DNA from: Curvularia clavata
Lineage: Eukaryota
Assembly: GCA_023920165.1 (NCBI GenBank)
Contig: CP089275.1
Coordinates: 2,914,001-2,978,000 of the forward strand
Direction: 5' to 3'
DNA: 64,000 nt
Of the stretch, positions 18,763 to 27,500 are shown in pieces. A program made the position numbers and the translations under genes. The notes below the pieces were generated by a model. It saw only the letters and a program-made list of their open reading frames with translations. It was not told where the DNA came from and did not search any database. How positions within the stretch are numbered: the stretch's first letter is position 1; each line of letters opens with the position of its first letter.

Positions 18763-21159
18763 ATGAAGTTCCGTGACGGTATGGTCACAGGCTAAGAATG
18801 TGGATTCACTGCTAATGCAATATAGGAATGTGGCTGGTCAATGACCGCTTTACAGTCCAGCATGCAGAAGAAGTATATACCGTTACACCTCGCGAAGACA
18901 ACAAGGCTGTCACACTGCTTTGCCCGAGTAAAAAGATCTTTTCTCGTGGTGATACGCTCAACTTAAGCACCATATCTGTGGAAGTGGAAGCCCAGTTCGA
19001 TGGCGTCATCTCCCTCGAAGTCACGCATTTTGCCGGTGCTAGACGTCTAGGTCCAGATTTCGACCTCTTTCCTGGTGGAAAACCTGAATGCAAGGGCGAA
19101 ATTGTGAAGACCGAAAAAGGGACTACAATCACATCGGGAGCATTGAGTGCAACTGTCAGCTCCAAAGAGCACACTTTTGACATCAAATTTCACGCCACGG
19201 ATGGATCGAAGTCATTGACTTCACTAGGTCACCGCAGTATTGGTCTCGCCTATTCTCCGGCTTTGAGCACACCAAAAACTGCCGGAGACTTGGGTGCTCA
19301 CAAACATTACATGTTCACTCAAACTGACTTGGGTGTCGGCGAAACAATCCATGGGCTCGGTGAGCGTTTTGGTGCTTGGAACAAAGTCGGCCAAAATGTC
19401 GAGATCTGGAACGAAGATGGGGGCACCTCTAGTGAGCAAGCCTATAAGAATGTGTCATTCTGGCTGAGTTCAAGGGGCTACGGTGTCTTTATTGATACCC
19501 CCGACAAGATTGATCTGGAGATTGGAAGTGAAAGATGCGCTAGACTGCAGACGACAATAGAAGGGCAACGATTGAAATGGTGAGATTGTTGCACACTTGA
19601 AGTGGACGGTAGCTGACATGTTCAGGTATCTGATTTACGGCCCTACTCCAAAGGAAGTTCTCACCAAATACTCTATTATCACTGGAAAATCAAACCGTGT
19701 ACCAGCATGGTCATATGGATTATGGCTCAGTACCTCTTTCACTACTTCTTACGACGAGAAGACAGTTCGGCATTTCGTTGAAAAGATGTCTGAATCTAAG
19801 ATCCCTGTAGAGGTCTTTCATTTTGATTGCTTTTGGCTTCGTGCCTTTCACTGGTGCGACTTTATCTGGGACCCCGAGTCCTTCTCAGACCCTGCAGGCC
19901 AGATAACTCGAATGAAGAAGGACGGACTCATCAGCAAAGTCAGTGTCTGGACCAACCCATATATTGGTCAGGCAAGTCCTGTTTTCAAGTACGCGGCCGA
20001 GAAAGGCTATCTGCTCAAGAAGACAAACGGTGATGTATGGCAATGGGATCTCTGGCAGACTGGCATGGGCATCGTCGACTTCACGAATCCAGAAGCATGC
20101 AACTGGTTTAGAGAATGCATGGAGAAACTTTTTGACGTTGGAGTCGACTCTATCAAGACCGACTTTGGTGAGCGCATCCCCACCAAGGAAGTTCAGTGGC
20201 ACGACAAGACTGTGGATCCGAATCGTATGCACAATTACTATGCCTTCATCTACAACAAGCTCGTATATGAAGCAGTACAAAAGCGATATGGAGAGCATGA
20301 GGCGATACTCTTTGCACGCACAGCATGCGCTGGCTCCCAGCGATTCCCACTCCATTGGGGTGGTGACTGCGAGTCTACCCCGGCCGCATTGTCCGAGTCG
20401 GTGCGTGGGGGTCTCAGCTTAGGATTGGCATCCTTTGCCTTTTGGACCAGCGACATTGGTGGATTCGAGGGCAGCCCACCACCTTGGATCTATAAGCGAT
20501 GGGTTGCATTCGGACTGCTTAACTCTCACAGCAGACTTCATGGCTCGAACTCCTACCGCGTTCCGTGGCTAGTCGACAACTCCTCTGCCGAACCAGAGAG
20601 TTGTACTGATGTACTGCGACACTGGGTGCAACTCAAGCGCAGCCTGATGCCATATCTCTTTGCTCAGGCTGAGGAGAGCGTTGCTAACGGTTGGCCGACA
20701 AGTGTTCGTGCGGTGGCCCTCGAATTTCCAGATGACCCAACGTCCTGGTATCTGGATCGCCAGTTCATGGTCGGTAGCCAGATTCTAGCTGTACCAGTAT
20801 TTGAGGAAGATGGAACCGCCGAGTACTACCTTCCACCCGGTCGCTGGTTCAGCTTCTGGGATGGCAAAGAGGTACAGGGTGGCAGATGGATCAAGGAAAA
20901 GTATGGCTTTCTCCAATTACCACTGTTTGTTCGCGAAGGCACTATCTTGGTGCTCGGGCAAGCTCAAGGCGAGGGCGGCTTCGGCTATGACTGGCTCGCT
21001 TCTGGTGGCGAGGTTAAGTTGTATGGCGTGAAGCCGGGTGACAAAGCAGTGTTGGTGGACACCAAGGGTGACCACAAGGGTGTCCTAGAGGTCGATGCCA
21101 GTGGCAACCTCAAAGGAATGGACGTGCTGAGCGGGGAGTGGAAGATTTCCAAAGCGTAG
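18763..21159 (+). CDS. GH31 alpha-xylosidase (YicI-like), no signal peptide, 3 exons
   Basis: N-terminus MKFRDGMW (intron 18779-18825). Motifs GLGERFG, GLWLSTSFTTSYDE, VFHFDCFW, catalytic KTDFGERIP, WTSDIGGFEG and HSRLHG. Confidence 0.92.
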
Positions 21160-23391: not shown

Positions 23392-23822
23392 GCACATACT
23401 CCAGCCAAGTTGTTAGTGATCTAATCAAGAGAAGATGGTTGTGCCTTTAGTAGGCGTTGACATGTAGGTGGTTGGGGTCAGAGATACTCCGGGAGTATGA
23501 TTGTTACCATATGCATCAACATTGAGATTTTCGAGAATGTCGCACAAAACGTCATATATGCATAGACATGCAAATCTAGCTGTGTTCGAGCGTTCGGTTA
23601 CATAACATCGTTCGGTGATTCACCGTACCTTACATGAGTCTAGAATCTTATCATTCACTACCCCGGGCCACGTTTGCTGTTGAACGCTTGAGGAGACAGT
23701 TGTATTTGCATTTCCAGATGTTCTAGATACACAACAAGTGAGCATACAGATCTTCTCTGTCGATGCATTCTGCCTTGGATATCATCCTTGATCAGTTACT
23801 GGTGGACGAAGATAACAGATGC

Positions 23823-23831
23823 AAAAAGAAA
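23823..23831 (-). terminator. RNA polymerase III terminator (TTTCTTTTT) of the tRNA gene
   Basis: T-rich run beginning after a 6-nt spacer downstream of the discriminator base. Confidence 0.75.
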
Positions 23832-23837
23832 CCAGAG

Positions 23838-23960
23838 TAGCTGAAGCACGTTTCTATTAAGAGATTAGTAGCTGTTATCGAACACACTATCATGGTAACC
23901 ATACCGATCGTGCGTCCTCCGGGTTATGAGCCCGGCGCGCTTCCGCTGCGCCATTCAGCT
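23838..23960 (-). tRNA. Initiator tRNA-Met (CAT) interrupted by a 51-nt GT-AG intron in the T-loop (exons 23960-23905 and 23853-23838)
   Basis: Spliced 72-mer: AGCTGAA TG GCGC AGCGGAA GCGC G CCGGG CTCATAA CCCGG AGGAC GCACG ATCG|AAA CGTGC TTCAGCT A. All four stems pair perfectly. Initiator hallmarks are present: A1:U72, three G:C pairs in the anticodon stem, A54 and A60. Confidence 0.93.
23854..23904 (-). other. Spliceosomal-type intron inside the tRNA-iMet gene
   Basis: GTATGGTTACCATGATAGTGTGTTCGATAACAGCTACTAATCTCTTAATAG has donor GTATGG, branch TACTAAT and acceptor TAG. Its removal exactly restores the T-loop ATCGAAA. Confidence 0.85.
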
Positions 23961-24496
23961 TTAGAACTGATGAATAAAAACATTTCTAGTTTACAAAACT
24001 TATATTTACGGCTTCACACCATAGTACCAATGATCTCAGTACTTATTACAACGACAGAAGGCCAACTCCATTGAGTTAATCGAGAGGTGGGGGCAATGTC
24101 TTTTTTTTTCATCACACATTTGTGCGGTGTGCGTCGGACAGTACCGGCCATACTATGGCGGTTTCGGACAACTTCGGGCTTCCATATTACAGAAGATGAA
24201 ATATTCGGCATAAATTTGGTGGGACGAACAGACATTGCACTCATTTCGAGTTTGGTGCAATTATCTCGGCAGAATGCGAAGATGAGGATTTGTGTTAAGG
24301 AACGCAAGGGCGGGTCCAAGTTCACGTCGCAATTTTACCATTATGCTAATGTTAAAGTGACTTCAACTGATCTTGCATTCCCTGAAGACGGTCGGTGTAA
24401 TGATATGTGTTGCTGGTCGTTTGGTCTTAAAGCTCGCGGGGATGTAGTGGGTGGCGGTCCTGACATCGGAGGAGAGCAAAAGCGGTTAGCTGCACA

Positions 24497-24585: not shown

Positions 24586-27500
24586 ATGCATAGCTACTCA
24601 CCAGGCATCCCCTCCTCGTTCGACCCCGCCCTTCTCAACTCTGAACTCGAATTCATCCATGACCCGGACCCGTCTCTCTCCCATTCCGACGAATTCGACG
24701 CCATCCAGCAGTGCATAGCCGAAGACACGGTTAAGAAGACCCGCGCGGGAGTTGTCATACAGCATCGCGCCTGGAAGCTTGCAGACATATTTAGAAGCGA
24801 AGGTGAAGGATTGATTGGTAATACTGGCGTAAATATACATTGCGGCCAGTACTAATCTTCCTAGAAACACCCGCAAAGCGCCGCAAGCAGCATCACCCTA
24901 TTGATCCCTCGACTGGCCCATCGACCGAAGGGCCTTTCTTTCCTTCTTCGCCTCCAAATTACGCCATGCCGCTCATATCATCCCCCATCGCATACCCACC
25001 AAGCTCGTCAATGCCGCAGCCGCCGTCACCCAAGAAGAGAAAGCGCCCAGACGATGCACGGGAGACTTTGCAAGATGTACCAAACAACAATACGACTCGC
25101 AAGATTGGTGGGTTCTTGGATGACTCGGACGATGAAGAGGACATTGCAGCACTAAAGGAGCACACTATGAAGAAGAGGGCTGTGAGCAGTATTAAACATC
25201 TTCCAGAAGTCCCTGAGGGCTTTGCCAACTATACACCACCCGCAAGTCAGGACGAATTAGCAGACCCTGAATCAATACCCGTCGAAGAGCTCGATAACTA
25301 CAGTTTTAAGTCCCAGTCACAATCGCCAGTCAAGAGACCGCAAACATCACATGAGTCTAATTCGGCACTGCCTTTGTGCGGCGTGGTCGCACGTAATGCA
25401 GCCGGGAAGGTAATACACATACCAAAAAAGGCCAAGCGCGAAGTTCAGTCATACGAAGAGATAATTGCTGCACGTTCGGAGCCTGTTCAAGGCAAAGCGA
25501 GGACAAGCTATTATGGACTCAACATCCATCAGCTAATAGACGAGGCCAAAGCCCTAGACCAAGAGAAGGCACTGAGCAATTCTATGCAAAACTTGGAGCT
25601 ACCGCACCATTCGGTCGAACAGCCGGCTATCAAAAGTGGAAAGAGCCATCGTACGCTCATGTGGACTGAGAAGTACAGGGCAAAGAAATTCACGGATTTG
25701 GTTGGAGACGAAAGAACACACCGATCGGTGCTGCGTTGGCTAAAGGCTTGGGACCCTATTGTGTTTCCGGGATCTGCTAAAGCAAAGCCGAAGAAAGCAA
25801 AGAATGGATTTGAAGAGGATGAGCAAAGGCATCGCAAGATCTTGCTTTTGACCGGTCCTCCTGGCCTTGGAAAGACTACTCTTGCACATGTATGTGCTCG
25901 ACAAGCGGGTTACGAAGTTCAAGAGATCAATGCTTCCGATGAACGTAGTGGGAATGTTGTCAAAGGCCGTATTCGAGATATGGTCGGCACTGAGAACGTG
26001 CGCGGCGTTAACACCAGCACAGCAAATGGCAAAGTCCGCAAAGCTGGTAAGCCTGTCTGTGTTGTCGTCGATGAGGTAGACGGCGTAGTGGGGAGCGGTG
26101 GTTCGGGGGAAGGTGGCTTTATAAAGGCCTTAATTGATCTAATTCATCTTGACGAGAAGAACTCCAAGGCAGTGGGACAAGGGCAGTCGAGCGCCGGTAC
26201 CAAGAAGAGGAAGGGTGACAAGTTTCGCCTATTGCGGCCGCTCATATTGATTTGCAACGACCTCTATCACCCTTCGCTACGACCACTACGGCAGTCTTCC
26301 CTAGCCGAAATAGTGCACATTCGGAAACCTGGTCTCAACATGGTTGTTTCACGCATGCAGGATATCTTTACCAAGGAAGGCATTCAGTGTGATTCCGACG
26401 GTGTTCGCCGATTATGCGAAGCTACATGGGGTGTAAGCACAAAAAAAGAGGGCGGAACTGGAAGTGGCACTGGTGAAGGAGACATTCGCGGGATCATGGT
26501 TGTAAGCGAGTGGATTGCGGGGCGGTTGCGAGCTACACATGGCTCCAACTCAACCGAGCCACCACATCTGTCACGGAAGTGGATAGAAGAAAATCTTGTC
26601 AACGACTTGAGGCATGGTGGAGGAGCCACTCGTAGCCTGGGACGAGGCGGCGCGAAAGATGTGGTCGACCGTGTCTTCCGTGAAGGCGCTGGCTTTCCCA
26701 AGCAAGCCGAGACAGCTGATCCGGCAACGGCAGCAGCGAGGGCAAAGAGTGGCGTTGTTGGTGTTGCAGAAGCAGCAAAGCGACGTGCTATGGACCGTCT
26801 TAGAGAGATGGTCGATACAAGCGGCGATTGCGACCGCGTTGTGACCGGTAAGTTTGCTTCGGAACCTAAATCAGGCAGTATGTACTAACAAAGGCCAGAC
26901 TGCTTCGCCGCATACCCTGAGAAGCCTTTCCAAGATGACACCTTTCTCAGTAAACCCAACGCAGCTTACGAATGGTTACATTTCCACGATACCCTCAATT
27001 CTGCCGTGCATGGTTCACAGGAATGGGAGCTGGCACCATATCTTTCTAACTCCGTACTAGCATTCCACGATCTGTTCGCCTCGCCCATTCGTTCCTCGGC
27101 AAACCCTTTGACGGATCCAGACACCCAAACAACACCCTTCTCCGGTCCTGGTGCAAGTTTCGCCGCAATGGAGCAGACCAAGGCTAGTAGAGCTCAATTG
27201 ATGGCACTGCAGACAACCTTGAGCTTACCTTTGACCCGCATGTTTCGAAGTCCAGAAGAAATGGCAAAAGAACTAATACCCTACGTCTTGCGCATGTTGT
27301 CGCCGGACGTTAAACCTGTCATAGTCAACACAGGCGCTGCAGGATCAAAGTCGGTTGCCACAGCCTCAGTACGCAAAGCATCAGAGAAAGAGCTAGTAAA
27401 AAAGGCTGTTGATGCCATGGTTGCAACCGGCGTCCGGTTCGAGAAATCCCGAATTGAAACGGAAGATATTACACAAAGAAATACAGGCTTCATTTGGCGC

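Follow-up and report, generated by a model that had tools for sequence, protein, structure and literature searches.

Nuclear transfer RNA (tRNA) introns lie, by the textbook division, between positions 37 and 38 and are cut by the tRNA-splicing endonuclease TSEN, whereas GT-AG introns belong to transcripts of RNA polymerase II (Pol II) and to a few small nuclear RNA (snRNA) and ribosomal RNA (rRNA) genes. Initiator tRNA genes are, to our knowledge, normally intron-free. Can a tRNA nevertheless be matured by the machinery that splices mRNA? A locus in Curvularia clavata raises this question. We analyzed a stretch of 64,000 nucleotides (nt) from this fungus (assembly GCA_023920165.1, contig CP089275.1, positions 2,914,001 to 2,978,000; hereafter the window, numbered from its first letter), which carries an initiator tRNA-Met gene interrupted in its T-loop. 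The locus is probably a functional nuclear ascomycete initiator tRNA-Met gene, with the T-loop split at G57/A58 by a 51-nt spliceosomal intron of the U2 type (GT-AG). The presence of an mRNA-type intron in an initiator tRNA gene under selection is well supported at the DNA level and is accompanied by one probable observation at the RNA level.

Removal of 51 nt restores an initiator tRNA cloverleaf

The two exons of the gene lie on the minus strand (Table 1). When the 51 nt between them were removed by script, ARAGORN called a 72-nt tRNA-Met(cat) with no stem mismatch and with standard pairing at all 21 of its 21 stem pairs. The cut may be shifted by one G (an insert boundary ambiguity of 1) with the product unchanged. 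Eukaryotic initiator tRNAs are marked by an A1:U72 pair, by three consecutive G:C pairs at the foot of the anticodon stem, and by A54 and A60 in the T-loop. The spliced product has all of these marks, its T-loop reading AUCGAAA. A54U55C56 is given as an initiator feature in a passage of PMC3978253.

Without removal of the insert, the gene escaped the standard tools. ARAGORN called no tRNA in the 64-kb window, and none in the unspliced stretch with introns allowed; Rfam gave no tRNA match in the window at the gathering score. At the E-value threshold, Rfam returned a single tRNA match (23896..23960; 28.8 bits against a cut-off of 29), which spans exon 1 and forces a false, mismatched acceptor stem from the start of the insert. 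No further tRNA, whole or partial, was found in the 64 kb by ARAGORN or by Rfam at either threshold. An earlier reading made from the letters alone (the sequence-only reading) had held that a mismatch-free initiator cloverleaf forms only once the 51 nt between G57 and A58 are taken out, and that tRNA scanners would probably be blind to such a gene. Our scans of the spliced and unspliced forms agree with it on both counts.

The insert resembles local mRNA introns

The insert begins with the donor GTATGG, contains TACTAAT, its branch A lying 11 nt before the 3' end, terminates in the acceptor TAG, and has no run of four T (T4). These signals, first pointed out in the sequence-only reading, were all found again on re-reading. 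Four mRNA introns in neighboring genes, placed by frame junctions and read by hand, are 46, 47, 47, and 49 nt long, with the branch A 9 to 11 nt from the end. A script that joins open reading frames (ORFs) proposed 394 intron candidates, mostly spurious, and was used only to pick a handful with clear signals, not for statistics. The first intron of the GH31 gene (18779..18825, 47 nt) has the same GTATGG donor as the insert, a CTAAT core, and a TAG acceptor, confirming the resemblance that had been reported for a nearby xylosidase gene. Judged by its length, its donor class, and the motif and distance of its branch site, the insert is typical of local introns. No target-site duplication was seen at the insert when the sequence was read for one.

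Both strands of the window together hold 511,598 segments of 48–52 nt, of which 1,926 begin with GT and end with AG; just 53 of the 511,598 (1.0e-4) also have CTRAY 8–14 nt from the 3' end. The borders of the insert are fixed by the tRNA structure, so its splice signals were not chosen by us. As a separate observation, the probable first intron of the AAA-ATPase gene (24818-24864) and the tRNA insert have a 9-mer in common, TACTAATCT, which may be merely the branch consensus.

Contigs from sequencing runs contain both the interrupted and the joined form

We aligned the Logan contigs of four sequencing runs to positions 23500-24300. Runs X2 and X3 are DNA, and runs X6 and X9 are labelled "RNA? 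(a guess: may be DNA)". X2 is labelled with the species of the source and X3 with another; X6 and X9 come from different studies. Metatranscriptome runs X15-X19, with small shares of 0.04, were left out. The X2 and X3 contigs are unbroken from 23500 to 23943, insert included. Since the insert is continuous in two DNA runs, it is not an assembly artefact, and an objection that the sequence-only reading had raised against itself is thereby ruled out.

One contig of X9, the run only guessed to be RNA, joins 23853 directly to 23905 and skips exactly 51 nt (record 18; it covers 23783-23853 and 23905-24300). The ends of the joint read CT..AC on the plus strand, which is GT..AG on the tRNA strand. 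The shorter arm of this contig is 71 nt and includes 55 nt of unique downstream flank, from which it follows that the molecule derives from this locus; the other arm is ~500 nt. X6 contributes a 240-nt contig in which the insert is kept (record 14, 23686-23903, depth 3.3). X6 and X9 have two variants in common (24022 T>C and +T at 24100). Both leave intergenic stretches uncovered and are uneven in depth, with neighboring contigs ranging from 3.3 to 57, and the contigs of both end near 24406-24413, past which the DNA runs continue. The uneven cover and the common end point are weak signs of RNA for X6 and X9, and the lack of X9 cover at 23500-23782 is a hint on library type only. Overall, we consider it likely that X9 is an RNA run. 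If it were DNA, the joint would still set the 51 nt apart as an intron in its own right, but the RNA evidence would be lost.

Related metagenomic genes carry two inserts each

Metagenomes were scanned with a pattern consisting of the anticodon-arm core, ATCG 12 nt later, and then GT, and six loci were returned. Three of them (L004, L005, and L006), whose contigs range from 1.2 to 106 kb, are initiator tRNA genes of the eukaryotic type; here, too, a GT..AG insert interrupts the 57/58 site, but its sequence is different. It is 48-50 nt long, with a GTACGC donor, a CTGAC whose A lies 10 nt before the end, and a TAG acceptor. The same genes have a second insert between positions 7 and 8, of 50-52 nt, with a GTAGGC donor, CTGAT with its A 12 nt from the end, and an AAG acceptor; their first exon is just 7 nt. 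ARAGORN called tRNA-Met in three of the three genes when both inserts were removed and in none of the three when only the T-loop insert was removed. Read from the sequence, the donors of the three insert types agree in having a G at -1, an A at +3, and a G at +5.

Relative to L004 and L005, the L006 gene has substitutions and indels inside both inserts, with donor, branch, and acceptor kept and with identical exons. The sequence-only reading had suggested searching this and related genomes for conserved splice signals around divergent interiors, and this is the pattern found: L004-L006 keep GT, branch, and AG while the interiors of L006 and L004 differ.

The spliced products were then compared pair by pair. 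Between the window and the L004-type product, 14 of the 21 stem pairs are the same and seven (four acceptor-stem and three T-stem pairs) have changed on both sides, all of them remaining standard pairs; no pair has changed on one side only, and the unpaired positions do not differ. The inserts separate the two strands of each of these stems, so what is conserved is the cloverleaf that exists only after the inserts have been removed. This pattern of compensatory change, seen at the level of sequence, is hard to reconcile with a decaying pseudogene. The argument from perfect stems in the sequence-only reading is therefore backed by seven compensatory and no one-sided changes.

Taken from sequence comparison, these genes point to an arrangement that is present in at least one other fungal-type lineage, and suggest that tRNA genes with mRNA-type introns form a small class and are not a single oddity. 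No DNA or translated similarity to the window was seen in 300 nt on each side of the L004-L006 genes; only exon 1 matched. The inserts of the window and of L004-L006 are unalignable and the flanks dissimilar, which leaves shared ancestry of the 57/58 insert unsupported. The same pattern had no match in prokaryote genomes and none in viral contigs; these collections are without fungi, so the absence of matches is silent on how widespread the feature is.

The remaining three loci were dropped. L002 and L003 appear to have matched by chance, both being GC-rich and coding-like, and L001 is a bacterial-type initiator tRNA fragment. In L001, the T-loop of the 5' part of the tRNA runs into unrelated sequence, and an inverted copy of the anticodon-arm core lies ~70 nt downstream; the locus might mark a site of integration or a tRNA that has been rearranged.

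The genome also has an intron-less initiator gene

In X2, X6, and X3, a contig departs from the locus at 23914 and continues into an uninterrupted T arm and acceptor strand of different sequence, and the 5' end of the gene is covered by short contigs that carry two differences. The genome has at least one intron-less initiator tRNA-Met gene with the same 40-nt core and other T and acceptor stems. Summed depth over exon 1 rises 3-6-fold (160-194 versus 47 in X2 and 555-729 versus 118 in X3), from which we estimate one or two intron-less copies, contig depth being a poor measure of copy number. The intron-less paralogue of X6 sits in a 4151-nt contig at depth 57. We also observed the paralogue at the 23914 branch in a related genome.

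The sequence-only reading had gone further and proposed that the spliceosome matures an essential product here, which could couple translation initiation to splicing. With intron-less initiator copies in the same genome, this proposal is unsupported as stated. Their presence leaves no basis for calling the interrupted gene essential and makes it one contributor rather than the sole source of initiator tRNA, and any coupling of initiation to splicing would be weaker than had been proposed.

Promoter and terminator elements leave two polymerases as candidates

The A box of the gene (TGGCGCAGCGG) is intact. The B-box consensus corresponds to tRNA positions 52-62, and here the insert interrupts this element after position 57; the gene thus does not have the intact B box of a type-2 gene. 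Upstream, there is a TATA-like candidate element (Table 1), and L004-L006 have TACTATATGTAT at a similar upstream distance. The insert itself contains GTTCGA, a B-box core (approximately 23875-23886 on the minus strand, ~58 nt after the A box), a motif found in 1.3% of 51-nt windows. GTTCGA is not present in the L004-L006 inserts, and for this reason we keep an intron-borne B box as a lead only.

A run of five T (T5) starts 12 nt downstream of the gene, where the sequence-only reading had noticed a T run after the 3' exon. T5 followed by GC is also found downstream of the gene in L004-L006, 4-5 nt after it; T5 occurs in 1.6% of 20-nt windows. T4 is absent from all inserts examined, but since 86% of 51-nt windows are without T4, its absence is weak evidence. 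The spliced contig of X9, at more than 570 nt, crosses the T5 runs on both sides of the gene. This contig fits Pol II read-through or a host transcript at least as well as it fits RNA polymerase III (Pol III), although contigs can chain overlapping RNAs and its length is therefore not decisive for Pol II. The earlier claim of a Pol III product is not supported as stated: the intact A box, the TATA-like element, and the T5 after the gene in both lineages speak for it, and the split B box and a spliced contig that crosses both T5 runs speak against it. We note separately that, within 23783-24413, contigs of X6 and X9 cover intergenic DNA upstream of the tRNA gene and end near 24406-24413, which might mark where a non-coding minus-strand host transcript begins.

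A model for maturation and its alternatives

We suggest the following order of events. The primary transcript, unable to fold its T arm, would be recognized by the spliceosome through the donor, the TACTAAT branch site, and the TAG acceptor, and the 51 nt would leave as a lariat. G57 would then be joined to A58, restoring the AUCGAAA T-loop, and only after this splicing step would folding of the cloverleaf, end processing, and modification of A58 in the T-loop become possible. The spliced precursor might come from Pol III, as for fission-yeast U6, or from Pol II as a longer host transcript. The spliceosome as the cutting agent is the economical reading of the signals, and a mature, aminoacylated tRNA would be the outcome.

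Several observations weigh against this model. The independent lineages are few, as L004-L006 come from related samples and represent two or three taxa at most. The split B box may impair ordinary tRNA-gene transcription, the spliced RNA may be a by-product of Pol II read-through that never becomes tRNA, and the intron-less copies could supply all initiator tRNA. X9 may moreover be DNA, in which case the joint, known from one contig at depth 5, would be an intron-less allele.

The last of these points amounts to an alternative in its own right, namely that the X9 joint is a DNA polymorphism, an intron-less allele of the same locus found in some strains. It would fit the guessed labels of X9 and X6, their low depth (3-5), and contig totals of 24-29 Mb versus 33-41 Mb in the DNA runs, as expected of low-coverage DNA. 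Yet X6 has both X9 variants (24022 T>C and +T at 24100) and retains the insert, its neighboring contigs vary from 3.3 to 57 in depth, X9 is bare at 23500-23782, and both runs stop near 24410, unlike the DNA runs. We regard such a polymorphism as rather unlikely. If true, an exact loss of 51 nt at GT..AG borders would resemble intron loss by reverse transcription; the intron reading would then stand and the RNA evidence would fall. A lower probability still attaches to a disabled tRNA copy, a pseudogene hit by an insertion and spliced by chance within a Pol II background while the intron-less copies make all initiator tRNA. The presence of those copies in the same genome, the split B box, the failure of scanners to recognize the gene, and the appearance of the spliced form only in a contig of more than 570 nt over two T5 runs would all be accommodated. 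Such a copy would not, however, be expected to keep 21 of 21 stem pairs intact with seven two-sided changes, no one-sided change, and unchanged unpaired positions, which is unlike decay. Two further versions of the gene keep two inserts with intact signals, identical exons, and diverging interiors, T5 right after the gene is kept in both lineages, and the insert has no target-site duplication. We therefore think a disabled copy improbable.

Fungal TSEN measures from the mature domain of the tRNA to 37/38, which counts against its acting at G57/A58. The insert could nonetheless be imagined as a non-canonical tRNA intron, cut by TSEN and joined by tRNA ligase at a bulge-helix-bulge (BHB) motif, as is the case for unusually placed introns of archaea, red algae, and nucleomorphs. 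BHB-dependent splicing is known at non-canonical tRNA positions that include the T arm and the acceptor stem (PMC3978253), and the exact excision seen in X9 does not identify the cutting enzyme. In a home-made, permissive BHB test of 18 registers in both orientations on five inserts, a 4-bp central helix was found at two of the five, in differing registers; 591 of 2000 shuffles did equally well, so the result lends no support to a BHB. Cutting by TSEN would also leave unexplained the GT, the AG, the CTRAY at 10-12 nt, and the -1G, +3A, and +5G in three insert types, as well as the match in length to local mRNA introns. All told, this route appears highly improbable.

For the model of spliceosomal removal, the part of the sequence-only reading that survives is a real, selected tRNA gene with an mRNA-type intron; the part that does not, as stated, is an essential product dependent on the spliceosome. 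A more general proposal can be made, which we favor with somewhat less assurance than our conclusion on the window gene itself. Some ascomycetes may mature initiator tRNA by the spliceosome, with one or two GT-AG introns (57/58 and 7/8) selected across lineages and removed as lariats before the cloverleaf, the 1-methyladenosine 58 (m1A58) site, and the B-box region exist in RNA. These genes would form the first tRNA class with spliceosomal introns, might be transcribed either within a Pol II host RNA or by Pol III with a promoter element carried in the intron, and would be invisible to standard annotation.

Relation to known introns in stable-RNA genes

A literature search for a GT-AG intron in a tRNA gene found no description; most subscription journals lay outside the search, and an earlier report is possible. 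Known hosts of spliceosomal introns among stable RNAs are made by different polymerases, rRNA being a Pol I product and U1, U2, and U5 being Pol II products. In the section of PMC5855946 that we consulted, spliceosomal introns in stable-RNA genes are listed for U6, U2, U5, and U1 snRNAs and for ascomycete rRNA, and tRNA does not appear in that list. The U1, U2, and U5 snRNA introns and those of ascomycete rRNA resemble the present case in being GT-AG introns in fungal stable-RNA genes (same section of PMC5855946). Spliceosomal introns in non-coding RNA genes are thus already known, and the tRNA is a new host class.

The U6 introns of Schizosaccharomyces and other fungi are the closest in form: they are short, have GT..AG borders and a branch site, and interrupt a gene for a small, highly structured non-coding RNA with a T run at its end. 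In 1990, Frendewey and colleagues reportedly placed the B-box match of fission-yeast U6 within its intron, and the window insert likewise holds GTTCGA. The likeness has limits: the host here is a tRNA and not an RNA of the catalytic center of the spliceosome, the B-box-like core is absent from the L004-L006 inserts, and the use of Pol III is only a candidate. For U6 introns, an origin by reverse splicing has been proposed, as stated in PMC5855946. This origin is not obviously applicable here.

Canonical tRNA introns (37/38, removed by TSEN and ligase) have in common with the present inserts that they are intervening sequences in nuclear tRNA genes whose removal is required for function. They differ in that the inserts described here lie at 57/58 (and at 7/8 in L004-L006), have GT..AG borders, a branch site, and the length of mRNA introns, and showed no BHB in our test. 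Non-canonical tRNA introns with BHB motifs, which standard scanners miss, are described for archaea, Cyanidioschyzon, and nucleomorphs in an excerpt of PMC3978253. The odd-position, split, and permuted tRNA genes of archaea, Cyanidioschyzon merolae, and nucleomorphs are alike in having introns in the T arm or acceptor stem and in being missed by scanners (same excerpt). Those genes have a BHB at their junctions and no GT-AG or branch signals, and the genes of the window and of L004-L006 are the reverse.

If true, a spliceosome-matured tRNA would break the division between TSEN introns and GT-AG introns and would be a new case of intron invasion into structured RNA genes. It would also raise the questions of how a gene with a split B box is transcribed and how the spliced RNA enters the pathway of RNase P, RNase Z, and CCA addition. 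As annotation of the tRNAscan type misses such genes, fungal tRNA gene counts may be incomplete.

Genomic setting and minor observations

The tRNA gene occupies a ~1.2-kb intergenic stretch between two plus-strand genes and itself lies on the minus strand. Genes in the neighborhood encode a GH31 glycosidase, MFS sugar transporters, and a CBM20-containing amylase. Short introns and the nearest Atlas cluster, in which Ascomycota are commonest, assign the window to an ascomycete.

Table 1. Positions of the interrupted initiator tRNA-Met gene, its surroundings, and related features
Feature	Position	Strand	Length	Remarks
Exon 1, initiator tRNA-Met	23960..23905	-	56 nt	tRNA positions 1-57
Exon 1, content	23905..23960	-		Acceptor 5' strand, D arm with A box, anticodon arm with CAT, T-stem 5' strand, first four T-loop bases
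Insert, GT..AG, mRNA-type	23904..23854	-	51 nt	Between G57 and A58
Exon 2	23853..23838	-	16 nt	tRNA positions 58-73: A58-A60, T-stem 3' strand, acceptor 3' strand, discriminator A
T5 run, candidate Pol III terminator	23822..23826	-		12 nt past the tRNA 3' end; hand-counted, possibly off by 1-2 nt
T5 run	23976..23980	-		~20 nt before the tRNA 5' end; would halt Pol III transcripts arriving from upstream
TATA-like AT-rich stretch AAATATAAG	23996..24008, approximate	-		~40 nt upstream of the tRNA start; candidate element
Spliced-form contig, X9 record 18	23783..24300 within the aligned stretch	-	574 nt	Depth 5.08; ~106 nt more beyond 24300
Sugar-transporter gene	ORF end 23416	+		Flanks the intergenic stretch
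AAA-ATPase gene	Start probably near 24659	+		Flanks the intergenic stretch
Probable first intron, AAA-ATPase gene	24818..24864	+	47 nt	GTAATA..TACTAAT..TAG; TACTAAT identical to that of the insert
Two-insert initiator tRNA-Met gene	L004:237-408	-		Coordinates by hand from script offsets
Two-insert initiator tRNA-Met gene	L005:224-393	+		Coordinates by hand from script offsets
Two-insert initiator tRNA-Met gene	L006:222-395	+		Coordinates by hand from script offsets

The runs also differ from the window in the surrounding intergenic DNA. A T10 run at 24100-24110 on the plus strand (A10 on the tRNA strand) varies in length, with +T in X6 and X9, +TT in X3, and -1 in X2. X6 has a 22-nt insertion at 23702 and eight differences in 92 nt at 23500-23591, by which its strain is clearly diverged in the intergenic region.

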